64,000 bases of DNA from Carcharhinus amblyrhynchos (Eukaryota): assembly GCA_965287045.1 (NCBI GenBank), contig OZ336881.1, positions 45,818,001-45,882,000 of the forward strand, read 5' to 3'. The translations under genes and the position numbers were made by a program. The notes under the pieces are model-generated. The model worked only from the letters and a program-made list of their open reading frames with translations. It was not told the DNA's origin and searched no databases. Below are positions 3,364 to 43,504 of this stretch, piece by piece. Positions within the stretch are counted from its first letter, which is position 1; the number at the start of each line of letters is the position of its first letter.

Positions 3364-3640
3364 GGAGTGGTACAGTGGTTAGCATTGCTGCTTCACAGTG
3401 CAAGGAACCTAGGTTCGATTCCTGGCTTGGGTCACTGTCTGTGTGGAGTTTGCACATTCTCCCCATGTCTGCATAGGTTTCCTCCAGGTTTCTCCCCACA
3501 GTTCAAAAGATGTGCATTGGCCATGCTAAATTCTCTCTGTGTACCTGGATAGGCACTGAGTGTGGCGATCAGGGATTTTCACAATAACTTCATTGCAGTG
3601 TTATTGTAAGCCTACTTGTGACACTAATAAATAAGCTTTA
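3364..3640 (+). mobile_element. V-SINE/HE1-like SINE
   Basis: A-box gtggtacagtggttagc, B-box ggttcgattcc, same core and tail as 1-260. Confidence 0.88.
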
Positions 3641-4780
3641 AAAGATATTTGCCAAATAACTCGCAAAGTATGAACACTTCCTGAAGGCTGAGAAAGTTAG
3701 AAAACAAAAAGCAAATGAGCACCTCATTTTCTTCTTTCCTTTATTCCTGAAATTATTCAATGTCCAGCACTCTATCCCAAGTCACACTTCTTGTCGTAAA
3801 CTTCACCCTCAACACCTCTTTCATTCTGTTGCATTAAATTGCCACTTCGAACCAAATTCCCAAATAGACTCACTCAGTTGCTGTCTCAATTTTCAATTTG
3901 AACCCGGTTCTCAAGTATACTCATTTGGACTCTGGCCAAAGTTTTCCCTCATTGATTGTGTGCCCTTACTAAAATATAGAAAAAAGAATAAACCATGAAA
4001 CATCACTTCAGCTCTTACCACTGGTTAACCCTTCAACACACATAGACTTCATCCATGTCAACCCATGCTACCTCAGGGCCTTTGCCCACTCTTCATGGCC
4101 CCTTGCATTCTCTATGCCACTTCATACCCTGTACCCATTCCCATGACTTAATATCAAATTATCTTACATCCAACATGCCAACTCATCCAACTTCCACCTT
4201 GGGCTGAACTCATATGGCACGCCACTGAAAATAATCACTGAAAGTAATAAAGAGTAACTTATCACCATGATATTGTATTCATTCTCATCCTCTGCAGCTT
4301 CTTCATTATAGGCAACTGACCATCACTTCTATTATCCCCATCTAATGGGACCACATGGTTTTGTGCAATTTGTGCATAGCAAATGCTTCACCAGTAATGT
4401 TTCGTCTTCCCTTCTCTTCAAGATCAACTTTCAAGTCACCAAGTATCTAACTGTGACTGTCTCCCCTTCTCCATATGTGCTACCCCTCTAACATCATTTG
4501 TAAGCATGTTATCTGCTTCTATATTTATTCTAATGACGTATATCTCTATCTCTCTCCCAGCTTCATCAACAACAATAACATTGTGTCGTGCCATTAACAT
4601 GGTAAAATGTGTCAAAACACATGACAGAAGCATTATTGAACAGAATTTCTCACAACTATATAAGCAAATAATATCACCATATGTGACATGATATCCTTTT
4701 TTTTAATCACTCCTGTGAAGCACCTTGAGATATTTTAAAGGCACTCTAAAACTGCACAAATATGAGGCAGTTTCACTTGT

Positions 4781-5915
4781 TGGGGCAATCTTGAATCTAC
4801 TCCCACCGTCCGCCGAATTGCCGACTCAACATTTGGAAATTACAGATCTCGCTGATGAGATCGTGATTTCGGATCTTCCCTATCCCTCACCAGTAACGTC
4901 ATCAGGTTCACGTCCATAATGAGCATGGCCTTGATTTACATACTTTTCAATAAATTTTAATATTAACATGCCCCTTGCCAGATATTGAATCCCCCCCCGC
5001 TGTATTTTCAAACCGCGCTGATGTGACATCACATTGGTGCAGTTTATGATAGATTCACCCAGATGTTAACCTGTCATAGGGATCCCCCAGCTGTGTGAAA
5101 CTGAGTATAGTCCCCAGGGGAGAGGGAACCACAGTGACTTGATAATGTTCTTGGACTTCCCTGGGCACAGGTTGGCACTGCTAGGTTGGCAACATGCCTA
5201 TGCCACCTAGAAGTGCCAACCTGACAGTGCCAACCTGTGCAAAGTGGCAGACCCCAGTGGGAGCCTCATGGGGGAGGGGAGAATTCATTTAAATGTGATG
5301 GAGGGTCAGCGCGGACAGAGGAGCTGGGGATCTCAGTGATGGCCGTTTGGGCCCATGGCAATGGGATGGAGGGGTGAGTACCGGCCCCAACTATGGGAGG
5401 ATGGGGAGAGGGGAGAAGGGGCTGATGATAAGGGGATAAGCACACAGTGGTCAGCGCTGCTACTTCACAACACCTGGACTCAGTTTCGATTCCCGGATTG
5501 GGTCACTGTCTGTGCGGAATCTGCATGTTCTCCCCATGTCTATGTGGGTTTCCTCCAGATATGCCAATTTTCTCCCACAGTCTGAAAGACTTGCTGGTTA
5601 AAATGCAATGGCCACGCTAAATTCTCCCTCAGTGTACCCAAACAGGTGCCAGAGTGTGGTGACTGGAGGATTTTCACTGTAATTTCATTGTAGTGCTAAT
5701 GTAAACCTACTTGTGACACTGATAAAAAAAATAAACTTAAAGGAGCCGATGATTGGCTGCTCCCGCTCCCTCCCCCCCCAATAATCAGAGGGCTGGCAGT
5801 GGCTCTCTAATCTGTGTAGTCAAGCTTTACTGGCGTGTTGAGGCCCCACCAATTTTCTCTGGATAGAAACATCCTACTTTTCCTGCCAAAAACATCACTC
5901 TTTTTGTTAAGATTT
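4781..5915. mobile_element. non-autonomous MITE-like repeat with GC-rich interior, containing a nested SINE
   Basis: Shares sequence with 53500-54533 (ggatctt.ccct.cc..c.cagt...gtcatcag). No coding potential. Confidence 0.55.
5432..5740 (+). mobile_element. V-SINE/HE1-like SINE nested in MITE-like repeat
   Basis: cagtggtcagcgctgctacttcaca...ttcgattccc...cttgtgacactgata...ataaactt. Confidence 0.85.
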
Positions 5916-9628: not shown

Positions 9629-9932
9629 AGCGATGACATACCAATACAGTGGTTAGCACTGTTGCCTCACAGCACCAGGGACCCGGGTTCAATTTCAGCT
9701 TTAGACAACTGTGTAGAGTTTGCACATTATCCCCGTATCTGTGTGAGTTTCCTCAAGGTTCTCTGGACAATTGAAGGAAACCAAAGATGTGCAGATTAGG
9801 TGGATTAGATGTGGTAAATGTGTGAGGTTACAGGGATAGGTCGGGGGGGAGGTTGACTCTGATGCTCTTTCAGATAATTAGTCGATGGGCCGGAAGACTA
9901 CTTTCTGCATTGTAGGGATTTTATGATTCTAT
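9629..9932 (+). mobile_element. V-SINE/HE1-like SINE with CR1-type tail, nested in an older repeat (about 9110-10070)
   Basis: cagtggttagcactgttgcctcacagcaccagggacccgggttcaatt; tail gatgggcc...ctgcattgtagggattttatgattctat. Confidence 0.8.
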
Positions 9933-14755: not shown

Positions 14756-14890
14756 AACTGATGTGATGCCATTGCTGTGAGCATAATATAAATTGTAATT
14801 TTTCCATTACCAGAACTGCTGTTTGAGCATATTAACATAATCTCAAAACTTATTGAGTTAATTATATTTTATATTTTCTCTAATCCATAG

Positions 14891-15064
14891 GAGACTTGTA
14901 TATTGGAGGAATTGCCAAAGACATGTACAAAACATTACCAAAGCTGGTGGCATCAAGGGAGGGATTTCAAGGCTGTTTGGCTTCAGTAGACCTGAATGGG
15001 CGACTTCCAGATCTAATTTCTGATGCATTGTACTGCAATGGGCAGATTGAGCGGGACTGTGAAG
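14891..15064 (+). CDS. NRXN1: alpha-neurexin internal exon (LNS5 C-terminal part), 174 nt, phase 1 to 1
   Basis: Acceptor ttttctctaatccatag|GA, donor GAAG|gtatcc. Encodes [58 protein letters not shown]. Confidence 0.96.
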
Positions 15065-15599
15065 GTATCCTTAACGCACTTACTCGAGAGACAAATCAAT
15101 CACCATCATTCTATAAAGATACCTGCATATTTGTAATAATTGCAGTATCTTTTGCAACATCATTTTATTTCTCAATATAGTCATGTTATGTTTAACCTTT
15201 GGAATGCTGATGCTTTTCCACAAATGCCTCTATTTACTGAATACTTTATAAGCCAAAATCAAGTTACTCAGTAGATTTAAAAGCTAAGTAACGTAGTAAT
15301 GGGTTGAATTTTGGAGGCAGGTTTGTTTTTTTATTATCTTTGTTTTCAGTATGTTGTAAAACCATATTTGCAGTGCATGTAAATAGTCATGTATTAAAAA
15401 TTACTGAGCGATATTACTTACCAATATCTTAATGCAAGTATAAGTCAATTTAAAATAAATGGGTTAATGCTTCTATAAAATAAGTGGTGAAAGGAAATTC
15501 AATATTATTGTATTAAGTCTTCACCCAATAACATTCCAAACAATTTTCAAGCTTGATGTAATGACAGAACTTTGTCATCCAAAAGTGATTATTGTGCAG

Positions 15600-15890
15600 A
15601 TATATTTTTCCTTATTCTTTCATGGGATGTGGGTGTCACTGCAAAAGCCATCATTCATTATCTAAATGTTGTTCAATTGCCTTTGAACTGAATGGCTTAC
15701 TAGACCATTCCAGAATGCAATTAAGTGTCAACCATATTGCTGTTGGCTTGGAGTCAAATTTGGGCCAAACCATATACAGCAGCAGATTTCCTTCCTTAAT
15801 GGAAATTAGTGAACCAGATAAGTTTTTAAGACAATCCATGATGGTTGTTGTGTTCCACATTACTTTGTATTCCAGATTCCACTTATAAAA
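15600..15890 (-). mobile_element. SacSINE1-like (DeuSINE) remnant
   Basis: Reverse complement resembles 36700-36975 (tctggttcactaat...aggaaatctg...gactcca...tggttgac...ccattcagttcaaag). Confidence 0.7.
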
Positions 15891-16167
15891 CTTTTCTCAA
15901 AGCAATTATTTTGGTGTTAAGTTAAGTAAAAGTGACATACTCCTCCAGCACCCTATAATAATCATGTTTTATTCTCCTATGGGGGATCTAAATTTCCTTT
16001 TGGTTTAAGTTTGGATGGGCGAGAGTGGAATTCGGGACATGGCCTGATGTTCTGTCCTCCGTCCCTTTTTGCAATTATCAATAATGCTGGATGAATTGAG
16101 CACATCATATTTGTATTTGGGTCATTTATTATGATCACAAATGAATGAGGGAGACACACAAGAAAAT

Positions 16168-17056
16168 GTGAGCGATTTTCCCATCCTGCTGTGCTGCTTT
16201 TTTAGCGCAGTGGGCCAAGAGACTAGCAGAGGTCATTTTGCAGGCACAAAAAGTGCCAGAAATTGGCGCAGTGTTGAATAAGTTATGCAGCCTCTAATTT
16301 AAATGAAATTTGAATGCAATTAGTAGGCCCTGGTCTGAAATCTCTGGGACCACTAGCCTCTTCCCATCGCCAGTATTTCACTCCAGCAGGGATTATTATC
16401 ACACCCCACTAATGGGGAGCTAGTGGTCTGACCCCTGTAGTGAAGGGGAGGCAACTGAGGCACCCCAGAGAGTTGGGCACCAGGGGGGTGCCCTGAACGT
16501 TGACTGCTTGGCAGTGCCAGCCTGTGCCCCTGGCACTGGCCAAGGGCTATAAAGTGCCAATGCCAAGGGGGCATACCTGGTGGGCAGTGCCAAGGGGGTG
16601 GGGCATAATGGGGCAGGACCTCTGCGAGGGCAATCTGTGGGGTCCTGCTGCCACTCTGCAGTCTGGATTGGTGGGGGAGGGACGATGGGTAGGTTGAGAC
16701 TGGCGGACATGTCTGGGAGACCAGTGATCATGGTGGGCATCACACTGTCGATATTGTGGGATCGCAGGGCTGGCCAACGATCAAGCTGGTCAGCGATCTG
16801 TAGGCTAATAGCCAGGGGCCACTGCACATGCACTGGTCTCAGCACTGACAGATCAGTGCACGTGCAGTGGCCCCCTCAGCGCAATACCGCTGGCCTCTCC
16901 AGCGGGGATAGGCCCCGTCCACTGATTTTTAACATGATACACGAGAGTGGACTTTGCACACACTGGAGGAGTTTTTTTTAAACTCTCGCTGAAAAACCCA
17001 ATGTAATTTACTCCAGATTTTATCAAATTCAACATTTTTTTGGCAGAATCGCCCCC
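16168..17056. mobile_element. MITE-like non-autonomous element
   Basis: Imperfect terminal inverted repeats gagcgattttccca / tggcagaatcgccc around a GC-rich non-coding interior. Confidence 0.6.
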
Positions 17057-18274
17057 AACATATTTCTCAGCATTTGCTTTAATTTATCAAAACTGGCTGT
17101 TTTTGAAAATGGGACACTTTTTTCACCATATTGGATTACAAAAATCTTGTTCATCAGGCTACAAACCGGATATATCTGGATTTACTTATTCTGTGGCAAA
17201 GTGCAACAGAAATTTCACCCTCCACCCATCCCCAATGAAGTATGTCCCAGCTGGCACTGGGGTCTGCTTGGTAATTTAACACACTCTGACCCTGAAAAGT
17301 GGTTTGGGATTCAGGGCTAAAATAACAGGCAGAGTATTCACCCACTAAATAGGACCAGAAGAAATTTGGGGAAATGTCAGTGAACCAATTATTTAGCATG
17401 CTGTTTAAATGTAAACTACAAAATATAAACAGAAATATATGAACATTGTACTATATATTAAAAATATGTCTGCATTGACGAATCTCTGCACAGAACCAGG
17501 GCAGAAGCTCTACTAATATTGTATAATTTTAAATGCATTAATTTCTATCTACAATATATCACAGTCTAAAGGTTAAACACTATTTTGATCATTGTATACA
17601 TTATTTTGTAATTTTACTGATTTACATAATGAAAATGTTATGGAATCATAAAACATTACATTTATGACTTTTGTCCATTCTTTTTGTTGATATTACTTTT
17701 CATCATCCTGTTTTTGTGTTTTCTCATTCACCCTCGTTCCTGGTATTTTGTTTTAAGATTATATTTCATGAAGTAGAATTGTTACAATGTGCATTTCTGT
17801 GTCCAGCCATCTCTGAAAAGGTACAGCCAACAAAATTCAAATTTGCACAAAGCAGTTAGACTACACACCTTATTAACCAATCTATTTAATATGTTAACAA
17901 GAGACATTTGGGTACATCAGCAGAAACAGGAATGTGTAACCACTATAATTCACAATATTTAATTTCTTTCACTTCTGATTTCCCACACATTACAGAATGA
18001 CCTCTCAAACTTTTTACATACTGACAATGAATTCCAAACACAAATGTTATGTTTATTGAGTTTGAATTCAGTTGAAAGATACTTTTTGGAATACACAGTA
18101 GTTAATTGTTTATTGGGACTGAACCAGTAATAATAATGAATGGTAAAATGGTGAGAGAATTAGCCAGTTCTGGTGAGTGAAAGTGATGATGTGGATATGC
18201 CGGCGTTGGACTGGGGTAAACACAGTAAAAAGTCTGACAACACCAGGTTTAAGTCCAACCGATTGATAGTACAC

Positions 18275-18360
18275 TCACTAGCTTTCGGGGTTAGTCCCTT
18301 CGTCAGGTGAATCCCATTCACTAGCTTTCGGGGTTAGTCCCTTTGTCAGGTGAATCCCAT
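18275..18360 (-). ncRNA. two tandem 43-nt minimal hammerhead motifs (antisense)
   Basis: Units 18275-18317 (core CTGACGA, intact) and 18318-18360 (core CTGACAA, mutated), each reading ...agggactaaccccGAAAgcTAgtga on the minus strand. Confidence 0.75.
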
Positions 18361-18399
18361 TCACCTGATGAAGGGACTAACCCTGAAAGCTAGTGAGTG
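18358..18399 (+). ncRNA. minimal type I hammerhead ribozyme motif (sense)
   Basis: cattcac-CTGATGA-aggg(actaa)ccct-GAAA-gc-TA-gtgagtg: 7-bp stem I with one G-U pair, 4-bp stem II, and palindromic AGCT in place of stem III. Confidence 0.8.
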
Positions 18400-18427
18400 T
18401 ACTATCAAATAAATCGGTTGGACTTAA

Positions 18428-18604
18428 GAAATAGGAGCAGGAGTAGGCCATCTAGCCCTTCGAGCCTGCCCCGCCATTCAATAAGATCATGGCTGATCTG
18501 TCGTGGCTCAGTTCCACATTCCCGCCCTCTCCCCATAACCCTTAATCCCCTCGCTTATCAAAAACCCATCAACCCACGTCTTAAAAATATTTAGCGAGGC
18601 AGCC
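18428..18604 (-). mobile_element. 5'-truncated young CR1 3' end inserted into the Penelope-like element, flanked by TTAA
   Basis: Near-identical to 35336-35512. TTAA at 18424-18427 and 18605-18608; the host arm resumes exactly after it. Confidence 0.9.
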
Positions 18605-20184
18605 TTAAACCTGGTGTTGTCAGACTTTTTACTGAGTGAAAGTGACTCAGGGAAATTTACTATCATACTTAATCCCAGTTCTGACATTCTTTCAGGACTT
18701 GTTTCCAATTGCAACTTCATCAATTCAAATTTATCTTTCAAATTGTGTTTATTAATTCTAGTTCTGTTTAAATATGACATTGAAGAATTAATAATAATTC
18801 AGGAAGTTTGCATACTTTAAATCAATGAGTCTCCTCATTTTTGCTGTAGATACACGCCATCTACAGCCAAGCAGGCAGTGGAAAATTCTCCCTCCTGCCA
18901 ACAGCATTATTTAACTGGCAGTTATGAGAATATACAACAGCAACTGTTGGTGCCTCACACTTTGATTTTTTTCTTGCTGTGACAGTCAATACCCTACATT
19001 TGTAGCCCCCTACACTTGAACAACTAAGCCCAGATTTTCATTCCCAGTTTGGGTGCACAAAGATGGGAGAATTTCCAGCTCTATGAACCTGACCTTTAAA
19101 AATAGCCATTCGCAATTCTGATTTCCATTCTGGGGAAGGGGTGTTAGATTAGAATTCAAACCCATTGTATCCTGAATGAGTGTGGGAATTGCAGGGTGCG
19201 GAGGCAGATGGGCGAAAAGTCTCCATTAGTGCTCCAGTATGCTGTGGAATTAACTGAAAACAAAATTAAAACAAAAATGGGCCTCACCCCCCCCCCCACC
19301 TCCTTTTGCCACAACCCCCATAGACTGTCCATGCCTCATCCATACCAACCTATGCTACTTCATACCTCCCATCCAACCCCCTTGGTCCCTTTACTCCTTT
19401 TGACAATCCATGCAACTCTACTGACACTCCAGAACCTCTTACCCTCAACATCTCCATAGCCATTGGTGTCCCTGTGAAAATTAGTGCCAACTCATGCATA
19501 CCTACACCACCAACCACTGTGTCTTTACCCCCTCCATATCCAGTCACCTAGTTTCCTTGACAGTTCTATAACAGTCTTGACATTTCTGTGCACAATTTGC
19601 AAGGGTGCTTTACCTCTCCCAAATGTGTCCCAGGACCATATCAAAGCAGTACCTTACCTCTCCAAAAGAGTACCCACCTTATCCTAACAATTCATCAACT
19701 TCAGATCAACTTTTAACTGATCTCATCTGGACACTGAGTTTCACACATCCAGGGTACCGGAGTCCAACTTCAGTGGAGATAGCTTGTAATTTCATAATCA
19801 ATTGCCTCTGTAAGCCATGTATGCATCGACCCCAGCCTAATTCCAGTTCATCCCCACAAAAATACGAAGTGCCATGCTCTGTGGCAGGACTTGAATTTCT
19901 GAGCTAGTCTGTCATTTTTGCCAAGATGGAGTGGCTCTCTATTGTAAAAATCTGGGCTCTAATTTAGAAGCTCGCTGTGGGGGTTAATGTTTCCTTAGTG
20001 TTCTATTTGTAACGCAATTAAAAATGGGCAAATAATCACATTACAAATAATGCAAGAGGAAATCTTCCCCTGCTCTATGAAGCATTGAGGTACAAACATA
20101 CACCTTACATTGTGTTTCACAGCATGTTGGGCCTCAAATTGGTTTAGCTCTTCTAAAAACAAGCAAACATATTTAATGGTTACA

Positions 20185-20490
20185 AAGAAATAGAACCAAG
20201 AAATCAGGACATTTGGCCCAACATGTCCACATTATATTTTTTCTCCACACCTGTCTCCTGTGCCATCTCATGTAGCCCCCTCAGCATATCCTTCTAGGCT
20301 TTGCTCCCTCCTGTGCTTATCTAGCCTCTCCTTGAATGCATTAGTTGCTCCCAATGGTACTAACTTCCACTTTCTAACTTCTCTCTAAGTCAAGAAATTT
20401 CTCCTGAATTCCCCATTGGATTTATTTGTGGCTAAATTATATTTATGGCCCTGAGTTCTGGTGTCACTAGCAAGAGGAACCATTCTCCCC
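20185..20490 (-). mobile_element. old CR1 3' fragment
   Basis: aaagaaatagaacc...catttggccc tail, and gaaatttctcctgaattcccc...tttatggccc typical of the reverse-complemented CR1 ORF2 end. Confidence 0.6.
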
Positions 20491-23400
20491 ACATGCTGTA
20501 AAAAGGGGTTACAGGCTCCTTGCATCCAACTGAGCTGCCCTTGACACTACACTGCTGCACTGTGGGAACATGCTGCATTGCTCCAATATTGTCCAGCCTG
20601 AGTCAGAAGGTTGGGTGAAATGGGATCAAAAAGAAATTTGGGTGAGTAGGAGGGGAGCGGCAATCCAACTCTGATTACTAGTCTATGGAAGTTCCAGTCC
20701 AATATATATTGAGACGTAATTGTGTTGTTTGACGGCATCTCCAATAGCCTTTTTTTATGCACCACTATGATGTGCAAAAGAATGGCATTATATAATGTTA
20801 CAAGTCACACCTCACAATTGCATGATGAGCATTTTAAAAATAGTGGACAAAGCAGTTTATTTTTTCCATGGAGGGGCAGGCATGTTCAGTGCTAATAGCT
20901 TTGAATAGGAGCTATTCAATGACAATAGTAGATTTCCACTTGACCTTGCCATCTATAGAGCTTACTCTGCATCCCTAATTGGATGGCGAAAGCAAAGATG
21001 ATCCTTTAATTGCCTGCCTCCAGAAAAATAGTGCAGACAGGGGACCTAGATGCTACTGAGGTTGGGACCTATAAATGGGCCTGTACCCATTTAATAGTGA
21101 TGTTGGTAAAATTTCACCTGTTCAGTCTGTTTCTCCCTTCACACCTCTTCTCTCAGATGCTCTCAGACCAGCTGAGCATTTGCAGCATTTTCCTTTCTAT
21201 TCCTTGATGTGAAAATCTGAATTTTTTTTTGTGTTCAGAGGTGAAATTTGGTAATTCTTCACAAGACATGATACAGAATATTTATTGGATAGGTTTCACC
21301 ACTGGTTATTGTCAATATCCATAAACTATTATGATCCTTCTAGATTCTCTACATCAATGGAACTAACATAAACATTGCATTCAGCATCTATGACATTAAA
21401 AGAAGTTTGAAATATATATAAAAAAAAATTTTGAAGAGTAGGCACTTGTCAGAATCAAGTTTTTTAGGGTTCCTAAAAAGCATTTATTTCCAGCACGCTC
21501 TTTTTATTTCAGATTTCTTGTATCTGCAGTATTTTACCTTTGCACATCAAGGAAACAATGAAATTAATCAAACCAAAGAAAGAAAATACTTGAATATTTC
21601 AAGACCATAAATTATTGCAGCAGCAATTTAATTTAAAGTTTGAACACAGATTAATGTGTCAACAACAACAATATCTATTTGATTTGACAAATCTCAATTG
21701 AACCTTAAAATAAGACTGCAATGGTATCTATCTTGTACCAAGTGATCAAGTCAGTCTTCAAATGGTGGTTTGATCAACTGCTGATTTTGAGACCAGAGGA
21801 AGGAAAGGACTAATCACTAGCTCATATCCCTTTGCACAAACCTGTGGTCAAAGATTTCCATTTAAAAGTTTATTACACACAACTTATTGCACATACACTT
21901 ATACATGTTTATTGTCTAGTGTATTTTATATATGTGTGAAAATATGCATGATTAGTATGTGATTTCCACAAATATAAAATAGGCGGACAAACATGCATGC
22001 ATAAATGTGGGCATACAAACATACCTGTGTGATAAACTTCTATTTGTAGTTTCATGTTCAGGTCTTCTAATTCCATGTGTAAATCTTAATGCCACTATGA
22101 AAAACAAGCAGAAGAAAAATATAATAGCATGAGGGGCAAATAAATTATAATTTATATCTACAATTGTCCTATTTCTGATTTCCTTCATATTCCTGCACCT
22201 GCCACTGACTTTGTCTCGGCCATAAACATCTGCTCGTTCTACAGATCTCCCCACTTGATTCTTGCGCCTCCAGGTTTCTGACAGGACTCAACTTATAGCT
22301 GTTGCTTATTTTCCTCCTTATTTTAAGCCCCTTCCAGGCTTCTATTCGTTACCCAGGAGATATATTTGTGCATAAATGCATGCACGTATATGCAACTGGT
22401 ATCTTTCATTTTAGTACATTCAGTTACAGGTACTAGTTCTGTTCTATAGCACTGCTCATTTGCAACAACCTTTTGTGTTCTAAAGCTACAACTGTTTTTA
22501 GAATTCATTCATGTGTCAGAATTAAATGGCTTGCCAATGTTAATTTGATGGAATGCAAAGAAAAGGATTAAAAAAAATGTTCTGAGTGTTGACTGTGCCT
22601 ACCAACAAGAATACAAATAGGTGCACTTAGCCACAAAAAGAACAAAAATGAATTGCTAAGAAGAAACCTGAAAATTGAAAATTATTGGCTGGGTGTAGAA
22701 ATGTATTCTTAATTTTGTTTCATTTTTAACATTTAAACTGAAAGATGTTCATTAACAAGTTTAGGAAAACCAGTTTTTCCAATACATGTGATCATAAGCA
22801 AATGTTGAAAGTTGTGAAATTAGAATAATCTTTGTATTAAATATACAAAACATTTAGATAGATGGTTATATTATTATCTTTCACATACCATGGCTAACTT
22901 CTTTTAAAGATGACAAGTGATGCCTGTTTTGCTTTCAAGAGAGTTGCTACTTGTACCAAATGCTTTGTCCTTCCTGTGTTCCCATGTGGTCACCTTTGGT
23001 TCATTTTCTCCTCCTGTATCTGCAGTGAGAAAGTTTATTTTCTCACTTGCTATTGGTTTGTGTGAGAATTTCTTTCCGTTGGCTGCAATTCCCATCTGAC
23101 CTACTATGATACAAATAGTTGCTGAGAGCTATGTCTTCAAACTCTATTGAGTTCAGGAAGGTTTTTTCCAGTACCAGTTTCTGCTGATTGTTATACTTCC
23201 AAGTGTCATAAATCTAAATTTTATGAAGTCTATTGAAGAAGCCGTGAAGCGTAAAGACTTCCACAGCTTGAAGTGTTGAAGGATTTACAAGGATTATCAC
23301 AACTCTTTCCATATCTAAAAGACAAGTCACATTGATATTGCAAACAGGTACTCTTCATCCAGATGGATTTCTTTTTCCTTTCTGATGCTGATGCACCTGC

Positions 23401-26400
23401 CATGTACTTCTGATATTTGTCTTTTTTAATAACTCTTTGGCTTTCAATGTTTTTCTTATTTATCTCAGTGAATGAGGTATTGAAGTGGAATCACACTTCA
23501 GTACCAAACTTTTAGCAGAAAAAGGATTTTCTTTTCATCAGCACTCAGGATGCGAAGAAGCAGTCAAAATTCTTCTTGGAAGTCTATATCAGGATGAGGA
23601 TAGACTTATTTTAGGAATAAAGAAGTCATTAGGCTGAGGCACTGCTGTGACATTAACTGGAACCTATAGAGTTGCAGATGCTTACAGCCTCCCATTTCGG
23701 TGAACAGATCAGGAAGTGAAATCTGTACTGAGAAATTGTGCAAATGGACTGTAGAATGTCCTAAATCTGCTCCACTTTATTTTCCGTTAACCCTAGTGGA
23801 TTCAGTATATGCTGCTTGAAAGGATTGAGAGGCAGATACAATAGCAACATTCAAAAGGTTTCTGGAAATTTACGTACGTGAAAATGAAAAGGCATTTGTA
23901 AAGCCACGGGGAAGGTACAGGAGAAGGATCCATTTGGATAGTCTTTGCAAGGTAGCAGCACAAACACAATTGGCTGAATGGCATTGTTCCAAGTTATATT
24001 ATCGAATTACGTATCTGACAAATTAGAAAGCTAAAACAGCAAGGCCTCAATCTTATGATATCCCCTGAACTAAACAAAGTGAGAACAGTAAAAGCGGACA
24101 AGGATCACAGAAGGGTGATCAATGGAAAAACAATAACTTCTTTCATTTCAAATATACATTTTCAGTAGTCAAGTGCATTGTGTCATGTTGTTCAGGTTTC
24201 TAGTGATTTATTTTTGATGGGGTATTCATTTTGTTTTCAGGCTGCACAGGTATTGACAAAGTTCAGAGAACATTTTAAGTATATCAGTGCATTTTGTTTC
24301 CTACCGCATCATTCTGACTTGGAACTTTATCTCAATGACGCTGAGTCAAACCTTGAAACTCCCTCCATACACCACATGGTCTACACCACTTCAAAAAAGT
24401 GCCTCACTACCACCTTTCAAGAACAATGAGGGATGAGTGACAAATTCTGGGGTGCCAGCAAGTCTCTCAGCCCAACAATGAAAACAAAAATGATAAAAGA
24501 TTTGAATATTTGAATAAGTGCTTCAGAAGAAGTTATTTAATGTTCATATTGGTCATTATCCCAGGAAGCTGTCGCTCTCAGACCCAGTAAAAATGTTGTC
24601 AGGATTCAGATGGTTTTGTAACCTGAGTAAAGTGAACTGCCTTTTGCTCTGTTTTAAGCTTCCACGATCTTAACAAAGTGCCTGTTAAAGATGCCTAAAC
24701 AGGTACAAATATTCAAGATTAAAGCTAACTTTATCCAGAGTGCTTTGTTATCAAGGTAAAGTTAATTGTCCACTATTACTCTCCTTCAGTAACTGGCTGC
24801 ACCTGATAGCAGAAAGGTACCAATTGGAATATTCTGGAAAAAAACCTTTTAAGCAGTGAGTTTCCAGGTTCTGTTGGATTGGTCTATTGGTCGCATAATT
24901 ATTTGTTTAGTAGCTTCTTGAAACGTGTTGACATTTTCTAAACAGCCACAAAACTGCAGCTGAAAGTATTCCTCAAGGTTTGAGTTAAATGGCACCAGCC
25001 ACCCTTGTTTCCTATATATCAAACTCTAACTACCTGAATTGAATTGAACAATATAATGCTCATCTGGACTGTATCATACATTTTTTTATGATGCAGGAAA
25101 ATCCTGAGTAGCAGAAGATTGACATTCTGAAGCTCACTTTGTTCTGGACCACCTTTTTTATTGTTCACAACACAATTTTTTCAATGCTGCTGAACACCGC
25201 TTGCTAACACATGAGGAAGTAGCACATTGTTTTGTTAAGGAAGCTGATTGTAGACCCGTACAATGCTTTATTACTCAAATTCAAGGCTACCCAGCCTAAG
25301 TAAATAAAGAGACTTTTTTTAAAACAAGTAGAGCATGTCATGTTCTTTAACTTGCTTAAACAAAACTGATGAAGATCACACATTGGTACTGGAGGTAAAA
25401 CCTTGTACTTAGCAACTCAATCGGTATTCAGAAAACTGTGCAGGCCTACTCAGCACAATCCTAATGTTGCCTCATCAATTAACTGACATTTCTTGCCAAG
25501 AAAGAGCTATTTATCACCAGCAAAAACATTTAATTTGAAACCTTTGAAAAAAAAATTAACTTCTGTGAATCTCTTTCCCACCATTCTGGCACCTTGATGA
25601 TACAACTGTTAGTTATGACAAGAGAAGGATAACCATTATTTCCCTGATTCTAATGTTGAGGGTATTGATGAAGAACCTTTTTCCAATTTGTTCATTATAA
25701 TGAGTAGCATCAATTTTAAACTGTATCAGAACATGCAAAACTCCGCCCTCCAATAAGACTGGGACCTAATTATATTCCTCCCATCATCTCGGGGTACTTG
25801 TTTTCAAAATTGCCTCCCTTTCTGTCTTCAAATCTACCTTCTTGAAAACTTGTATGTATTCATTGCAGTGGATAATGAATTTCCTTATGTTTTCCTTGTA
25901 TCATTTTATAAGTTTTCTAATTTTATAGGAACAGCCATTAGCTGTTAAATTATCCATTGCATAGAAGGTCTGTCTAGCTTATGATTTGCTAGTACAGTTT
26001 TCAGTATGGCTGCTCCAATATTGATCTTATCATCTGCATTTTGAAACTTCTTGAATCTTATTCATGAAAGGTTTTGGTTAATCCAAAACCAGGTTCTGCC
26101 ATTGTATGCATTTGAACAAAGTGCCATCGTATGGTCTCCCATGAAATCTACATTTGGGTCTTTAGTATAGCAGGGCTTCCAGTAACAGGTTTCAGTATTG
26201 GGAGAGAGCACTGTGCAGAAGAACAGATTTGCCTGTCCCTGCAGGGAGCAATGCCTTTGACAAGCTGAGGGGCAGAGCCAGATACTGAGAGGCGAGAGTG
26301 AAAGCAGCAAGAATGAGTCCACAGCTTGTGAGCGGCAGGAGCTTAGAGCAGATTGAAGCCCTAAGATTGGCAAAGGAGTCAGGGAGAGAATCAAAAACTG

Positions 26401-27723
26401 AGTCAAACTGAATGGCAGCACCAATGTCTGAGAATCCTTATTCATGAGAGAATAGGACTGCAGCCAGGAACCAGGCAGTAGAGCAAGCATGGTGACTGAC
26501 TGTATTGATTAGCCAAGGCCCCGAATAAGAAAAATATCTGGAGCATCGGCAGTGAATATTCTCTGTAGCTAGTTTGTTCCTGAAAGTTATACTTTCCCTT
26601 GACAGTTTATACAGTTATGATACTGGTGGACTTTTTTTCTTAACCTTCATGCAGTATAGATTATGAAACCACACAATTCCTCTTGGCATAATTGGTATGA
26701 TTCCACAAAACAAGCATTAGGTTATGACAGACAAAACAGAACAGTGCCTGGTTGAGATAAAACAGATGGGATAGGAACTTGAACTGCACCTGCCCCACTA
26801 GGGAGGCTGAAGCAGCTGCAGTTCCAGCAGAAGCACAGGATGAAGCTGAGAGTTGAAGCAGTGATCAGAGAACTGCTTCCAGTGTGCCTTCCTTTAATGT
26901 AACAGGGGATGCATGACATATCCCATTATTGATACCATGCCACAGGGTGGGAAGCTGGATAGATTTGGGGGAAGACTGGAGATGTTCAATAACCTGGTGG
27001 TTGAGAATGGGTTGGATATAGCATCCAGTGGCATCAATGAGAGGGAGTCCACAGAATTTGTGATGGAACATCTGTACAGAAAAGCTTGGCAGGAAATATT
27101 GGAAAAAGTTGCAGATGCTCAAAGAGGTTTGTGGCAGATTTTTGACATCCAGGCATTAGTTTTTAGGGACAAGAGTAGTCTTTCAAAGCTACAGCGTAAG
27201 TTTTATGATTAAAAGCAAACCAAAGAAAAGGACCTGGTCTCTGTATCCCTGGATCTGGTGAAGTTGTTGACCACATTGCCTTCCTGGATCTTGCTTCAGT
27301 TCGACCAGGTATCTGCAGCTGAAAGATCGCCTTGCTGTTGCGTTGAGGGATGAAGATTTTCACAGGGATTTAATGAGACTCAACAGTGAAAACCCCAATT
27401 GTTTTCTTTGACATGTATATTTATTCTCTGGAGCATTTGCAGGATGGCAGGCTGTTACTAGTGGGGTATTGCAAGAATGAGAATTAGCTCCACAATATGT
27501 ATAAATAATTTAGATGTGAGGGCTAATTGTAATATTTCCAAATTTGCTAATGACACCAAACTGTGTGGGAACATAAGTTGTGAGGAGAATGCAAGGAGGC
27601 TTCACAGGTACTTGGACAGGATAAGTGAATGGGCTATAATTTGGCAGATGTTACATAAATGAGTAAGTGTGAAGTTACTCACTTCGGTGGTAAAAAAAAA
27701 CAAAAAGGTAAAATATTTCTTTA

Positions 27724-28610
27724 ATAGAACATAGAACATAGAACATTACAGCGCGGAACAGGCCCTTCGGCCCACAATGTTGCGCCGACCAGTCTTATTT
27801 TTAAAAAAAAACATTGACCCACTAATCTAAACCACTCCTTTTTCGTCCATAAACCTATCCACCAATCTCTTAAACGCCCCCAAACTAGGCGCATTTACAA
27901 CTGCAGCAGGCAGGGCATTCCAGTCCCTCACCACCCTCTGGGTAAAGAACCTGCCCCTGACATCCGTCCTATAACTACCCCCCCTTAATTTAAAGCCATG
28001 CCCCCTCGTGCTAGATTTCTCCATCCGAGGAAACAGGCTATCACCATCCACCCTATCTAAACCTCTAATCATCTTATATGTTTCTATAAGATCCCCTCTT
28101 AGCCGCCTTCTTTCCAGTGAAAACAACCCCAAATCCCTCAGTCTCTCCTCATAGGACCTCCCCTGCATACCAGGCAACATCCTGGTAAACCTCCTCTGCA
28201 CCCTCTCCAAAGCCTCCACATCCTTCCTGTAATGTGGGGACCAGAACTGCACACAGTACTCCAAGTGCGGCCGCACCAGAGTTGTGTACAGTTGCAACAT
28301 GACGCTGCGACTCCTAAATTCAATCCCCCTACCAATAAACGCCAAGACACCGTATGCCTTCTTAACAACCTTATCTACTTGATTCCCAACTTTCAGGGAT
28401 CTATGTACACATACACCTAGATCCCTCTGCTCCTCCACTCTATTCAAAGTCCTCCCGTTAGCCCTATACTCAACACATCTGTTATTCCTACCGAAATGGA
28501 TTACCTCACACTTCTCCGCATTAAACTCCATCCGCCACCTCGCGGCCCAGCTCTGCAACCTGTCCAAGTCACCCTGCAAACTTCGACACCCTTCCTCACA
28601 ATCTACCAAT
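27724..28610 (-). mobile_element. young 5'-truncated CR1 LINE (open 260-aa ORF2 C-terminus)
   Basis: LQGDLDRLQSWAARWRMEFNAEKC...LVRPHLEYCVQFWSP...TRGH. Tail (TAGAACA)3 at 27725. CpG-rich, so recent. Confidence 0.93.
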
Positions 28611-28650
28611 CTACTAATCTACCAATCTACCAATCTACCAATCTACTAAT
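28600..28650. repeat. 8-bp tandem repeat (AATCTACY) x6 at the CR1 5' junction
   Basis: aatctacc aatctact aatctacc aatctacc aatctacc aatctact aat. Confidence 0.9.
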
Positions 28651-31600
28651 GGTGAGAGAGTAGAAGTGTGGGGGTCAAAAAGGACTTGGGTGTTCTTGTT
28701 TATGACTCTAAAACTTAGGATTTAGGTAGAGCAAGGATTTTTTTGTTGCAGTATATAGAACTTTGGTGAGGCCACAGCAATTTTGGTTCCCCTATCTGAG
28801 GAGGGATATACTTACCATATATCACGTGAAACACAGGTTCACCAGATTAGTCCCTTGGATAGTGGGATTTTCTTATGAGGAAACTGGGTCTGTGTTCCCT
28901 AGAGTCGCCAAGAACAAGAGGTGGCCTTATTGAAACTGATTTTTTTACAGGGCATTATAGGGTGGATGTATATGAGATGTGTCCCCGGCTAGAGAAAGTA
29001 AAACGAGGGGACATAATCTTGGGTTAAGGGGTACACCATTTAAGACTGAGAAGAGGAGGAATGCCTTCTTCAGAGGATGGTGAATCTTTGGAATACTTCA
29101 CACCAGAATGCTGTGGAATTCAATCATTGAGCATATGCAAGACAAAAATTGATACAATTCTGGAGGTGACTAACATCAAACAAATGGAGATAGTAAGGGA
29201 AAATGATTTTGAAGTAGTTGATCAGCCATGATCTGATTGAATGGTGGAGCAGGCTCAAAGGAGTGAATGGCCTCCTTTGTTCCTATATTCTTATTGTATC
29301 ATTCAGAGCATAGGGTAAAACTAGACGTTTAAGACCAGGAAAGAGACCATGATCAGGGAGTTGGTGGGAACGTAATCCTCAAGCTGAAGAGGCAACAGAA
29401 TAGACTACTGCACAGCAAGCTCAAATCCAATTCTTGCTGCCGTTGATTGAGGACATATCGTCATGACAGGATATGTCCAGAGTATACTTCAAAGAGGTGC
29501 TGGAATTCCAACAGGGTTGGGCATTTCCAATGAAACTACCCTCAACATACACTACAAACATCAAGCATGATAACTCTGTCTCCAAAACCCCATTCCTCAT
29601 CCAACATCAGAAGATACAGGCCTAGCAAAGTAAATGAAAATGCTGAGGCCCTCAGCTGGATGACTGACTATGGAAGACAACCTACTTTTGCCAGGTTAGA
29701 GAGGATTATAGTAGATGCCATGCCCATACCTCAAGAAAAGGCAGCATTCACACACCAATCCTCTGTAGAATCTGGAAATGGAATCATCATAATTTCACCA
29801 AAGCAGGAAGGTGGTTTGGCATTGATCATCACACCCATAACATCAGATGTGGAGCTGGAAGTCAAACTCAGAAAGCCATTCCCACGGGGGAAATGCTTGA
29901 TGCCAAAAGTTGAGTGAATGATTTGAGGGCAAGGAGCCCACTTAACAGTTTGGTGGAACCTGAAGCAGTAGCTGACAGTAGTCTAAGTGAAGAGGAATCA
30001 GATAGTGATAGGACATCCTGGAATGTGTGTGTCAGGGATTCTGTGAGTGCTTCTGTACAGTGGCTGACTCTAGTGTTGGTAGGAAATGCCAAGATGTCTG
30101 ACAGGGAATGCTGCTGATCATATGTTCCACTGGAGACTTGATCAATTTCAATCCCTATATGGCTGATCCATCACAGAGTCTGGGTAATTTTGGCAGTGCT
30201 TGATTAGAAGGAGGGCTATGATGGTCATCTTGAGCAAGTGCTGGATATCATCCCAACCCATACCATTTGTCCAGATTAGTGATGCACAAAGGGAATGTTC
30301 CCACCAACATGGACTTGAATCTGCTAGCTGTTGTATCTCAATTGAACCAGCTGATTATGCAGTGGCTTAGTAAGCAGTCACTGTGTGATATGTCTCATTG
30401 CTGAGACGGCAAGGCACAAGTTGGGAAGCGTTTTTAGGGATCCCCAGCAGCAGGTGGCGATATTGAAAAAAAAATACTGAGGAGGGGAACTGGTTGGCCC
30501 ATGTGCATCTCTCCCTGCAGGGAGCAGTGTCTTTCACAAGTTGAGGGACAGTGCCAAATTTTGTCAGATAGGGAGAAAGCAACAAGGATTAATTCAGGGT
30601 GTGTGACAGGAGCCTAGGGGAGTTTGAATCTCCTCATATTGGCTGTAGAGACTAGGAAGGATCTGGAAACCTAGCCAAGCTACCTTGCAACACTCTGGAG
30701 TCTGAGAAACCATGAGAGGATAGGACTGCAGCGAGGAGCTGGGCAACAGGATAAGTCTGAATAAGCCTGGGAGTTGGCTGTGTTGAGGAGTCAATGTCTT
30801 GTCTAAATAGGGCAGAGATTTGAAGCAGTGATATTCTAAGTTTGTTTCTTGGACTTGCACTTTCCCTTGAGAGTTTATACAGTTGTGACGCTGGTGGGAT
30901 AAGGGAATATTGACTTTAACCTTTGTTGCTGTTTGGGTGCTTAATCCCTATGTTGCCCTAGCATCTTGAGCTACCCTGTTTGTGCTATAATTAGTGACTG
31001 ATCACTGACTCATTCCATGAACCCTGTCATTCTTTGGGGTTGGCTTTTTCTCCCAGTCATATCAGTACAATCTCCACTCATTATCCAAGTAGATCTGACT
31101 CTTATGTGCATTAATCAATTTCAATCAAATCATTCTTTTAAGTACTCACAAACGCCACCCTTCTGAAGCTTCAGTGGGATCCTCTCATACATGGTGCACA
31201 AGCTGTTCATTCTTGTTAGCTTCAGGTCTGAACTATTCTGAAAGGCTAACTACAGCTTGCTAATTTTAGGAAAATGGGATACTAAACATGTCATGTCAGC
31301 ACAACTAGTGCAATCAGTAAGAGTGTGAAAGGTTATCAGAAGATAGGCAGGGATGGGAAGTTGCGATTCAAACTAGTTCAGTCATGATCTTATCCACTGA
31401 GGATCAGGCTCGAGGGGTCAAGTGGCCTACTTTTGCTTTTAATTCCTATGTTCATCTAAGCAAAAGAGATCAAATCACCAATAATGTGCGTTAGCCTCAT
31501 GGAGCAGGCACTGCAATGGGATAATGACCAAATTCAGGCATGATCCAATTTCATGCATTCAAGGTTCCAAGATAAGTTGGGATGATAAAATCTTTGCAAA

Positions 31601-33499
31601 CTGATTTCATATTTCTGGAACAGCAACTGTGCTTGATTCTAATTATTTGTTCTCAGGATGGGTGTGATACTTGCAAAATTACATTTATTGGCTCGCACCA
31701 GTTTCTCAAAGAATGGTAAAGTTTTCCTTTGAAATTTTACAGTTTTTGTTCTGAAAGTGTTTTCACAATCATGTTAATGGAAAGAGCTTGTATTTAAATT
31801 GTGCTTTTTGTGACTGCAGGACTAATAAATTGTTTGAAATTGAAGCATAGTATGAAGTGTAATAATTGTTGGAATGGAGGAAGATATTGTGCAAAGTAAA
31901 GCCCCACAAATGGCAGTGATGATGAACACCCTAGTGACCTGTCAGCTTAGATTGTGACAAAGTTTTTGACTTTGTTTTTAACTGACAACTTCTGAATTAA
32001 AAATAAGAGTGCTATCATTGCATCAAGTTTCATACTTGAAGGTAGGGAATGCTAGGATTTTGACCCAGTGATGATAAAGGTACAGTTATGTGGCTTTCTG
32101 GGAATGTTATTGTGATACTACTACAAATATGGCTGCACTTCAAGTAAATCCCATGTACTGGCTTCAACAACCATCTCCAGTGATCACCTGAATAAAGAAA
32201 TGCTTTCGGGATTCTGTCACAAACTGGCCATTCAAAACCTTGTTTGTACACTTGTCCTACTGCTTTAGTATAGTTGAAACATATTGGGAAGGATTTAATA
32301 TGGTGGCAAAGGAAACCATAATCTGGTTGCACCCTTGCTGACCTGACCTCTGGAATCACACCTACCCAAGCTCCAGGCTCTCCTGAGGATATTTAATTGC
32401 TGCGCTATTAACTGGGGTCAAGAGCAAGGGTGGATAGGTGTCCACAACAAGGTCTGAGTGTGGTTTCTGTGGGCTGCACTTTCCTGATGCTGGATCCCTT
32501 AAATGGGCATGCAGTGCCTGAGAACTCCTCTACAAAGCCTGCAGCCAAACCAAACAGGATTTGTTGGATGAAGTGTCTCCTCCCTGCCAATGGTTGAATG
32601 GCAGTGAAATGAGACCCTGATGTAGCCTATTCGGAGCCTCAATTGGCCTCTAGGCACAGTGGCCACCCACAATCCCTTCAGCTCTGGACTTAATAGGGGG
32701 AAGGTAGCTGCACCTCCACACTGTACCCCCTGCCCCTGCAGTCCCCTCCCCCCACAAATCACACAGCCCCTTAAAAGTCAACCATTGTTTCTTACCTTTT
32801 CTGTGATGTGATTTTGGGGCTAAACAGCCCTACCTTGGCTAAATGATTGTTAGATTTGATCCTCCTTACATCAACGATCAGGCCTGTTGCTCACCTCTGC
32901 CCTGCCTCTGTGTTTTGATGATTTTCTTATGATACCATGGCCACAGTTCAATTGAATTTCAGCACGATCACGAAGATTTCAATTCAGCAAATTTGGCAAT
33001 ATAGCTCATCATTTTTGTACTCTTGGTTGCCATCTCATATTTGAAAGTTTTTAAGTTCAGTGATAATATCTTGCGTTTTATTCAATCTGAACTTGATTTG
33101 CTATATCGAAGCAAATGCAAGTCTTCTAACTTTCCCTGTCTTATCTTTTGCACTGATGACAAGGATTTGATAATAATTCCAGCTTTTTTTGGTGAAAAAA
33201 TGACCACATGGGGAATATTTTACAGAGGACACAGCTAGGCAATGACACATGATAATGAATAGAAATGAAGTGCAGGCATTACTTTTTTTCCCATGTTATG
33301 TGAATCATAATTTAGAAACGTCTAATTATTATGCCTAGAGGTGAGTAATTTTCCTCATCTTATAGTTTTGTCATGCTTGCCTTTCCAAAATAATTTATAA
33401 TTATTATAGTGCTATGGTAAAGTGTATCATTCTGATGGCAATATATATACTTATTCTTTCTTGCTTGCTTTTTGATGGTCAAAGGCCTGCTGTCATATC

Positions 33500-33628
33500 T
33501 TTTATTTGTTATTGCATCTTTCTCTCCTTTTAGCAGCATGTTTGCGCTAAATTATTTCTGATGTTTGCTAACATGCCACTAATGCTTACTAACCTTTTAC
33601 ATATTTTGCTTTTATTTTGCTGGCAAAG
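33500..33628 (+). promoter_or_regulatory. splicing-regulatory region upstream of SS6 microexon
   Basis: Four CTAA motifs (33547, 33568, 33579, 33589) including TACTAAC, GCATG at 33536, and TGC motifs between the U-rich tract and the AG. Confidence 0.6.
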
Positions 33629-33655
33629 TTGCATTGATGAAAGCTGACTTGCAAG
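33629..33655 (+). CDS. NRXN1: 27-nt alternatively spliced neurexin SS6 microexon (VALMKADLQ), between LNS5 and EGF3
   Basis: aag|TTGCATTGATGAAAGCTGACTTGCAAG|gtagat, phase 1 to 1. The peptide matches the mammalian NRXN1 splice-site-6 insert as I recall it. A TACTAAC branch point lies at 33587-33593. Confidence 0.92.
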
Positions 33656-34062
33656 GTAGATAGCTGTGTGTTTGTACAAAACAAGACTGAAATCTATGTT
33701 TGTGCAATACTTATACAAACAGCACATATCTGCTTTGGAACTCGATCGCATTCATGTCAAAATTTCAGAATCAGATCAATATTTTTAAGAAGTATTGCCT
33801 ATATGGGACTTTCAGTCTTGAATGTTTCTATATCAGTTATTTTAGTATGTTGAGTACATTTGTTTTACATTCTTCTTTGGATTCTGGTTTCCACTAGTAA
33901 CTGTTTTAGAAACGTAAAGTTATTTTCTTCATTCTGACATCCAACCTAACCATGTTCCTTTCTATGTCCAATTATCAGTTGACAGAACGCATGCAAAACT
34001 CATTAATATAAGACTAATGATGTGCTTAGGCCAAAATGCATGTTTTGTCTGTTCTAACTTAG

Positions 34063-35298: not shown

Positions 35299-36980
35299 AG
35301 GTAGCATTGATCATAGTAGTATTATAAGAACATAAGAAATAGGAGCAGGCGTAGGCCATCTAGCCCTTCGAGCCTGCCCTGCCATTCAATAAGATCATGG
35401 CTGATCTGTCGTGGCTCAGTTCCACCTTCCCGCCCTCTCCCCATAACCCTTAATCCCCTCTCTTATCAAAAACCCATCAACCCGCGTCTTAAAAATATTT
35501 AGCCAGGCAGCCTCCACCACTTCAACGGGCAGAGAATTCCAGAGATTCACCACCCTTTGAGTGAAGAAGTTCCTCCTCAACTCCGTTCTAAACCGCCCCC
35601 CCTTTATCTTGAGGCTGTGCCCCCTAGTCCTACTGTCTTTTTTGAGCGAGAAGAGTCTCTCCACCTCTATCCTATCCATCCCATTCATCATCTTATACGT
35701 CTCAATGAGATCTCCCCTCATTCTTCTAAACTCCAACGAGTACAAGCCTAGTTTATTCAGCCTGTCCTCATAGCTCAACCCCCTCAACTCCGGTATCAGC
35801 CGAGTAAACCTCCTCTGCATTCCCTCCAAGGCCAAAATATCTTTGCGCAGGTGCGGCCTCACCAATGCCCTATACAGCTGCAGCAAGACCTTCCTCCTTT
35901 TATATTCAATCCCCCTCGCTATGAAGGCCAGCATCCCATTCGCCTTCCTGACCACCTGCTGCACCTGCAAGCTGGGTTTTTGCAACTCATGCACAAGGAC
36001 CCCGAGGTCCCTCTGCACCGTCGCCTGCTGCAGTTTTTCACCACGTAAGTAATAGTCCTTCCTACCATTCTTCCTACCAAAGTGGACCACCTCACACTTG
36101 CTAACATTAAATTCCATTTGCCATTTCCTGGCCCATTCGCCCAGCCTATCTAGATCCTTCTGCAGACTCTCCACACTCTCCGCACAATTTGCCATTCCCC
36201 CAATCTTGGTGTCATCAGCAAATTTCGACACCCTACACTCGGTTCCCTCCTCCAGATCATCTATATAAATGGTAAAAAGCTGAGGCCCCAGCACCGACCC
36301 CTGGGGCACTCCACTAGTCACCATCCGCCAATCCGAATAGCACCCGTTGACCCCCACTCTCTGCCTCCTATTTGACAACCAATCCTCTATCCACGCTAAC
36401 ACCCTACCCCCAACTCCATGTCCCTCGACCTTCTGCAATAACCTCTTGTGAGGTACTTTGTCAAACGCCTTCTGAAATTCCAGAAAGACCACATCCACCG
36501 GCTCTCCTCTATCCACCGCCCTAGACACATCCTCATAGAACTCCAGTAAATTTGTCAGACACGACTTCCCTTTAATGAAACCATGCTGTGTCCGCTCTGT
36601 CAAGCAATTGCCTTCAAGATGCCTCGCAATTTCCTCCTTAATGACGGATTCTAACATTTTACCTACCACAGACGAGGTCCAGTCTAATGATCTGGGGACA
36701 TAAGTCAAATCCCAACGTGGCAGCTGCTGGAACTTGAATTCAATTCATAAAATTGGAAATGAAATCTAGTCTCAATAATGGTGATCTTGGAACCATTGGT
36801 GATAGTCATAAAAACCCACCTGATTCACAAATGCCACATTAGAGAATAAAATCTATCTGTGTGTGACTCCAGTCCCAGAGCAAGTTGGTTGACTTTTAAC
36901 TGCTGTCTAAAATAGCTTAGTGAGCCATTCAGTTCAAAGACAATCAGGATAGGCATCCAATGTTGGCCTGGCCCTGAAGT
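35299..36980 (+). mobile_element. SacSINE1-like DeuSINE split by the CR1 insertion (35299-35324 plus 36673-36980)
   Basis: Head ggtagcattgatcatagtagtatt continues as gaggtccagtctaatgatctggggaca...aaatccca...gcagctg and the Deu-like core. Confidence 0.65.
35325..36672 (-). mobile_element. young 5'-truncated CR1 LINE (RT domain to 3' tail), probably RT-dead
   Basis: 430-aa ORF: QHGF...KSCLTNL...FLEFQKAFDKV...SGVPQGSVLGP...FADD. Tail taagaacataagaa. Contains an in-frame 10-aa deletion. Confidence 0.95.
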
Positions 36981-42917: not shown

Positions 42918-43504
42918 TCTGATCAACTAATAGGCCAACATTGTATAGCAATGTATTGCGTAATATCTATATCTATATCTGTGTTCATGGAATGATTCTT
43001 GAACATGTACCTTTTCTTTAAAATGTGATTTGGGAAATAATACACTGCTGTGCAACATAATTATGAAAACAACCCTAATGCAATCAGTTTGCAAAACAAT
43101 ACAAAAGGAATTGTGTTAGTTGAGGGAACATTCCAGACATTGGATATTGTATGTGGAATGAGCTATTAAAATTATAATCAGGGGTCAGGATTAATCAGTG
43201 AAATGTTATGTACATAAAAATGGGTGATTATAAACAAAGATAGGAAAGATCAACTGCAGATTAGGTCCATTAACAAGAAAAAAGTATTTTACCATCATAC
43301 TGAAAATTCCTCTTAATGGAGATGAAATTGTTCCTTCAACACACCCAGTTATATGCTGGCTGTAAATTATACACCAGATGTTGTTCCTTCCATCAGTGCT
43401 TTCACCCCCAGGAAGACATTCATGAGCCTAAGACTCGTATTGTTCGGAATGCCTTTATCCATCTTGTATCAGTATAGTTGTTACTCGTGTCATCTTCTTG
43501 CAGT

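Follow-up and report, generated by a model that had tools for sequence, protein, structure and literature searches.

The question raised by this locus is whether an insertion with three hammerhead-like motifs, one on the sense and two on the antisense strand of a neurexin intron of Carcharhinus amblyrhynchos, is a compact, retrozyme-like non-autonomous element, as the original prediction had it, or the remnant of something else. The whole stretch of DNA analysed, here called the window, comprises 64,000 nucleotides (64 kb) of contig OZ336881.1 (positions 45,818,001 to 45,882,000). The plus strand carries the host gene, a neurexin: 967-1023 of neurexin-1-alpha in the PDB is matched by 14890-15063 (E-value 2.8e-30), and Pfam domain matches place three exons that tile one Laminin G domain and an EGF domain in the next exon found. 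The intron that separates the EGF exon from the last of the Laminin G exons found, with splice sites read from the sequence, runs from about 15065 to 34062 (+), so the predicted intronic location stands. In neurexin numbering, the flanking exons are presumably LNS5 and EGF3. Whale shark introns have been reported to be rich in CR1-like and Penelope-like elements. The insertion is made up of three layers, a Penelope-like pLTR pair, a local 43-nt duplication and a nested LINE 3' end. As argued below, it is very probably a dead-on-arrival, 5'-truncated EN+ Penelope-like element (PLE) insertion that was later altered by the local duplication, by the LINE insertion and by CpG decay.

A minimal-hammerhead descriptor, written after the motifs had been seen, gave two exact matches (18365, plus strand; 18306, minus strand) and one single-mismatch match (18349, minus strand; CUGACAA) in the 64 kb, all of them at the neurexin locus. 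With the same descriptor, ten shuffled windows yielded no exact match and two single-mismatch matches in total. The sense copy has intact core boxes (core 18365-18371) and its H17 lies at 18392, in agreement with the predicted cleavage site after this position, and the two antisense copies, one intact (CUGACGA) and one mutated (CUGACAA), were likewise recovered as descriptor matches. CUGANGA and GAAA boxes, helices I and II, palindromic positions 15/16 and an NUH site, the parts of a minimal type I hammerhead, were found without exception in two of the three copies, and the third differs by G8A. The copies, all at one locus, are nearly identical and show no covariation. The motif follows the published consensus CUGANGAH-G..C-GAAAN-palindrome-NUH, and its architecture, including the AGCU palindrome, is that of published PLE motifs, as had been anticipated. 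The plus copy has U at 11.1, compared with C in both minus copies, which turns the G10.1-C11.1 pair into a G.U wobble of a kind that occurs in published PLE hammerheads.

The motifs share CUGANGA-H, G10.1-C11.1, the palindromic 15.2/16.2 positions and the absence of helix III with the metazoan PLE minimal type I hammerheads of Cervera and De la Pena 2014 (PMC4209133), but helix II at the neurexin locus has just 3 bp. In that study the lamprey Poseidon row has the same UCAC/GUGA helix I, and the painted turtle row, which is not marked as PLE-linked, has the same AGCU palindrome and CAAAUAAAUC 3' flank; a term search of its supplement file 2 returned no shark row. The same work places minimal hammerheads in pLTRs and describes opposite-strand pairs 100-700 bp apart, and one opposite-strand pair has been reported at the 5' end of a truncated element. 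Bidirectionality is thus no novelty of the neurexin locus, having been in print since 2014 (PMC4209133). No Rfam family matched anywhere in the window at the gathering score, and at E up to 10 the region 18150-18670 gave 12 matches, none of them to a hammerhead family. The best of these, to miRNA models, were discarded as generic hairpins far below the cut-offs. A GTDB scan gave no match to the downstream arm motif, and its sole match to the hammerhead motif (Treponema MAG, L001 2001-2026) was rejected as a chance one, in which helix I does not close.

The insertion is bounded by the 13-mer TGAGTGAAAGTGA, present at 18174-18186 and 18633-18645 and nowhere else in the window on either strand, which confirms the predicted TSD with a length of 11-13 nt, the first 2 nt of the 13-mer also extending the match between the arms. 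The inverted arms and the 43-nt tandem were found at the positions first given for them, and the arms meet head to head at an inversion centre with 6-bp arms and a 3-nt spacer (18350-18364). To the left, the minus arm consists of a 36-nt tail with an A/C-rich 3' end, present in this arm only (18187-18222, -), of the sequence downstream of the hammerhead, without 5 nt (and the AATAAA) of the plus arm (18223-18274, -), and of the tandem units described below. To the right, the plus arm is split in two, the first part carrying the minimal hammerhead and AATAAA at 18408 (18359-18427, +) and the last part ending where the tail of the other arm starts (18609-18634, +). The arms therefore run 36 nt longer on the minus side than on the plus side. 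The region folds with a z-score of -16.5 (none of 100 shuffles being equally stable), and no further copies of the arms were detected elsewhere in the 64-kb window.

A single palindromic element of 472 nt, the form originally proposed, was not what we found, as 181 of the 472 nt (18428-18608) are non-palindromic and correspond to a LINE 3' end. Over 184 nt, the stretch 18422-18605 shares 96% identity with 35330-35513. The latter is the 3' end of a LINE on the minus strand, and RVT_1 was detected in the frame of this LINE at 35419-36744(-) (E 7e-28). The piece is flanked by its own 5-nt TSD, CTTAA, at 18423-18427 and 18604-18608, and is 5'-truncated (18428-18608, -; 176 nt plus one CTTAA copy). 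Homology to the 3' end of an RT-coding element, an own TSD and 5' truncation, all expected of a LINE 3' fragment, are thus present. Moreover, excision of 18428-18608 restores the plus arm without a scar at the site, after which the arms differ by one 5-nt indel and otherwise agree at 88 of 90 aligned positions. The own TSD and the exact restoration of the arm imply that the LINE inserted into one arm after the palindrome had formed, and the alternative that these central 181 nt are the element's own spacer or cargo was rejected on account of that TSD and of their presence in one arm only. Without the LINE piece the insertion measures 265 nt, and 222 nt if one tandem unit is removed as well.

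The nested LINE and its relative at 35330-35513 are candidate members of the CR1/HER1 type (HER1/HE1 of cartilaginous fish, a pair listed for sharks and rays). They resemble such elements in the 5'-truncated 3' end, the short terminal repeat and, for the longer copy, the RVT_1 frame. Long open frames were found in two LINE fragments of the window, 35318-36744(-) with 442 aa, the closest relative of the nested insert there, and 27827-28618(-) with 263 aa, each of which has a short terminal repeat at its end. The same LINE/SINE 3' end is also present in older copies that have diverged further, at 29220-29293 (83%) and 31375-31454 (73%).

With the LINE removed, what is left is a head-to-head inverted 5'-truncated pLTR copy, a tail of 36 nt, within the 30-40 nt of known cases, at one end, and a TSD, which together characterize truncated EN+ PLE insertions. 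According to Craig et al. 2021 (PMC8557442), an inverted 5'-truncated copy frequently accompanies truncated PLE insertions, as does a tail of 30-40 bp at one end. In Adineta, most such insertions are arranged head to head, and their TSDs measure 8-10 bp (Arkhipova et al. 2013 PMC3846280). The neurexin locus is like the insertions of both studies in its head-to-head pLTR pieces, one-end tail, TSD and hammerhead near the 3' end, and differs from them in having no ORF, an extra 43-nt duplication and a nested LINE; its TSD of 11-13 nt is also longer than the 8-10 bp of Arkhipova et al. 2013. This match supports the Penelope-like origin that had been proposed, and membership of the PLEs is very likely on the basis of architecture, not of homology to a named element. 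None of the 103 stop-free frames of at least 80 aa in the window corresponds to a PLE RT or GIY-YIG partner (the four that match Pfam are one RVT_1, from the LINE, and three neurexin exons), and no ORF lies inside the insertion.

The tail offers a further comparison. Its 3' end and the start of helix II lie 112 nt apart, and its proximal part is predicted to close a hairpin with sequence downstream of the minus hammerhead. In anole Poseidon, reverse transcription starts 111-118 nt into the ORF that begins at stem II, in an AC-rich stem-loop, and the tail lies between two start sites (PMC11167929). The neurexin locus thus resembles Poseidon PAc of Anolis (PMC11167929) in an A/C-rich end by a stem-loop, in two end points with a tail between them and in a 3' end about 112 nt from helix II, an agreement in distance that may be a coincidence.

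The third hammerhead, for its part, is probably the product of a local duplication. A 43-nt tandem repeat spans 18275-18364 with 2.1 copies. Unit 2 (18275-18317, -) has the intact core CUGACGA (C3 at 18306, G10.1-C11.1, H17 at 18279), and unit 1 (18318-18360, -) has a G8-to-A change at 18344, a CpG transition, with H17 at 18322. The junction between them (18307-18321) is identical to the inversion centre at 15 of 15 nt, and if one unit is deleted, a simple palindrome with a 3-nt spacer remains. TCAC occurs at 18275, 18318 and 18361, and forms a direct repeat because the strands of helix I are complementary (TCAC/GTGA) and the arms are inverted. As the duplicated 43 nt contain the inversion centre, the duplication probably arose at the neurexin locus itself.

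All three substitutions among the hammerhead copies are CpG transitions, at position 7 and C11.1 in the plus copy and at G8 in unit 1. Taking copy 2 as the reference, with its own 90 positions in the denominators and the indel removed beforehand, 3 of 16 CpG positions were substituted against 0 of 202 others (Fisher p 3.3e-4); leaving out copy 2's own positions, the counts are 3 of 10 against 0 of 118. CpG transitions are the pattern expected of unselected methylated DNA. Deamination of methylated CpGs would explain the substitutions, one of which would have killed a core.

From published PLE biology and the features above, a history in four steps can be proposed. The element's endonuclease would have nicked the intron and reverse transcription would have begun at the end of the tail, copying the pLTR over about 130 nt and stopping shortly beyond the hammerhead; an inverted second copy without the tail would then have been made head to head, leaving the 11-13-nt TSD. 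Hammerheads are found on both strands because each inverted arm carries the pLTR hammerhead. Later on, slippage between the TCAC repeats 43 nt apart, a mechanism suggested by the observed junction, may have copied one minus-strand hammerhead together with the inversion centre. Either before or after this duplication, the LINE 3' end would have entered the plus arm, as its TSD and the exact restoration indicate. Finally, methylated CpGs would have been deaminated, at the cost of one core.

The behaviour of RNA from the locus was estimated by nearest-neighbour folding with ViennaRNA, whose energies include no term for the hammerhead core or for proteins. On the minus strand, a type III-like hammerhead can be drawn in cis, with a predicted cut after 18322 (-). 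Unit 1 would contribute site 1 (H17 at 18322) and unit 2 the core, which is intact; the junction hairpin would serve as helix I (6 bp, 3-nt loop), and AGCU would form a further helix of 4 bp. This hybrid costs 5.1-5.6 kcal/mol for minus RNAs starting at 18330-18364, 7-10 kcal/mol for those starting at 18367-18385, and 23.7 kcal/mol for read-through RNAs starting at 18399 or beyond, in which site 1 is predicted to be captured (probability 0.999) before core 2 is made. The proposal that the tandem supplies a dimer partner in cis therefore holds as far as geometry and the intact core are concerned, but the penalty is about 5 kcal/mol for the hybrid by itself and about 24 kcal/mol with read-through. 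Because the reciprocal cut needs the core killed by G8A, release of a circle in cis is not possible. In published work, single minimal motifs gave no cleavage in vitro and dimers cleaved weakly, the anole Poseidon ribozyme depended on its protein for cleavage (Frangieh et al. 2024 PMC11167929), and of nine predicted Xenopus dimers, eight showed no cleavage (Li et al. bioRxiv 2026.07.22.740005).

Three other explanations of the locus were weighed against a truncated PLE insertion. The tandem could have been inherited from a source PLE family with tandem hammerheads, the plus arm having lost one unit after fold-back at the hairpin. Palindromes at inverted junctions have been read as signs of self-priming (PMC3846280), and the linker hairpin could serve for it. 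However, what follows the plus hammerhead is the flank of copy 2, not the linker, removal of a single unit already gives the simple palindrome with its 3-nt spacer, and a family-wide tandem requires an extra, precise deletion in the plus arm, so by parsimony one slippage event at the locus would account for the tandem structure and inheritance appears quite improbable. A functional explanation, in which neurexin is regulated through intron cleavage by a sense hammerhead retained for this purpose, draws on the intact core boxes on the transcribed strand and on the cofolding of two isolated sense copies as a swapped-helix-I dimer at -28 kcal/mol. Against it, the descriptor search found no second sense hammerhead in the window to act as partner, single minimal motifs did not cleave in vitro in published work, and two CpG changes have accumulated in the sense copy. 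On the plus strand, adopting helices I and II costs the isolated motif 3.5 kcal/mol, but this fold is disfavoured by 48-61 kcal/mol in all five contexts that include the inverted arm; the antisense arms emerge before the sense hammerhead in the transcript, and the core G5 is predicted to be paired with probability 1.0 at all five transcript lengths. As regards the two fates originally suggested for the sense copy, folding thus favours masking by the inverted arm and speaks against cutting of the intron, which is unlikely because the hammerhead is predicted to be buried in the hairpin. Retention for regulation of neurexin is accordingly extremely improbable, and in RNA the locus is most likely no more than a long intronic hairpin in which the ribozymes are buried.

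As for a mobile retrozyme-like unit, either the whole 472-nt composite or the tandem palindrome within it would have to move, its minus-strand RNA cleaving itself in cis and being remobilised by PLE protein. The tail and the hairpin where reverse transcription would start are both kept, the core of the cis hybrid is intact, pLTRs by themselves have reportedly moved unrelated sequence in trans (PMC3846280), and retrozymes have been proposed to derive from pLTRs (Li et al. bioRxiv 2026.07.22.740005). The composite, however, is not a compact unit, 39% of its length being the later LINE insert with its own TSD in one arm only. Nor does the tandem qualify, as it includes the inversion junction, one of its two units is dead and the window holds no second copy of the arms. 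G8A in that unit makes two-site excision and a circle impossible in cis, the hybrid stands at +23.7 kcal/mol when the RNA starts at or beyond 18399, and the arms are cut 6-9 nt upstream of the core, which would leave no obvious promoter. Non-LTR retrozymes (PMC7229834; Li et al. bioRxiv 2026.07.22.740005) resemble the locus in their tandem units with a type I hammerhead and their derivation from pLTRs, yet here two 43-nt units, one of them dead, lie within an inverted repeat with no circRNA route. Published vertebrate families have units of 51-972 nt (typically about 300) and require two complete motifs; the unit of 43 nt falls below this range, and one of the two motifs is complete. Taken together, these data make a mobile unit of this kind very improbable.

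Under the preferred explanation, a truncated PLE insertion altered in place, the duplication may still have had a consequence for the ribozyme. In a head-to-head PLE palindrome that is cut upstream of the hammerhead, the complementarity of helix I gives rise to short direct repeats one ribozyme-length apart, and slippage between them could have circularly permuted the hammerhead by accident, from a dimer-dependent type I into a self-contained type III-like form. The permuted parts would be the unit 1 site, helix I in the form of the hairpin, the intact core of unit 2 and the 4-bp AGCU helix as helix III. Such a permutation seems rather unlikely to us. If true, it would provide a natural example of permutation by duplication, a model that Eckert et al. 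2023 brought up by way of analogy, and a local first step towards the pLTR-derived arrays of Li et al. bioRxiv 2026.07.22.740005, whose retrozyme families include one chondrichthyan and whose tables may list related units. If 18330-18275(-) cleaves as a monomer and such duplications recur in PLE-rich genomes, there would be a general route from PLE debris to retrozyme-like arrays. We found no report of a hammerhead duplicated across a PLE inversion junction in a literature search from which most subscription journals, Repbase and Dfam were excluded. In any case, the locus as best explained is one more truncated Penelope-like insertion in a long neural-gene intron. Its useful feature is a natural construct of 56 nt with which cis rescue of a dimer-dependent hammerhead by accidental duplication can be tested, and which also bears on whether slippage seeds retrozyme-like arrays.

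Insertions of this kind occur twice in the 64-kb window. The second, a head-to-head palindrome built on the same plan, lies at 49496-49693. It has a longer plus arm and, at 49576(+), a decayed hammerhead-like motif with a 5-bp helix II and changes consistent with CpG decay. Measured to an end that was placed by eye, its core-to-end span is 118 nt, compared with 120 nt at the focal locus, and its similarity to the arm of the neurexin insertion is weak (22 of 2000 shuffles being as good), so it is probably an older PLE insertion of another family. Other repeats were also noted in the window. A complex inverted duplication at 41712-42921 pairs 41888-42123 with 42686-42921 (96%) and 41712-41891 with 42512-42691 (98%); it has an inner 38-nt repeat and no hammerhead motif, and could be a local rearrangement or an assembly feature. 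Short GC-rich palindromes lie within other repeats at 16815-16874 and 5165-5240, and 59347-59494 and 60607-60750 form an inverted pair of about 148 nt with 91% identity. Finally, a dispersed repeat family of about 260 nt is represented at 2-259, 3372-3641, 5444-5741 and 9645-9760, its copies being 72-77% identical.
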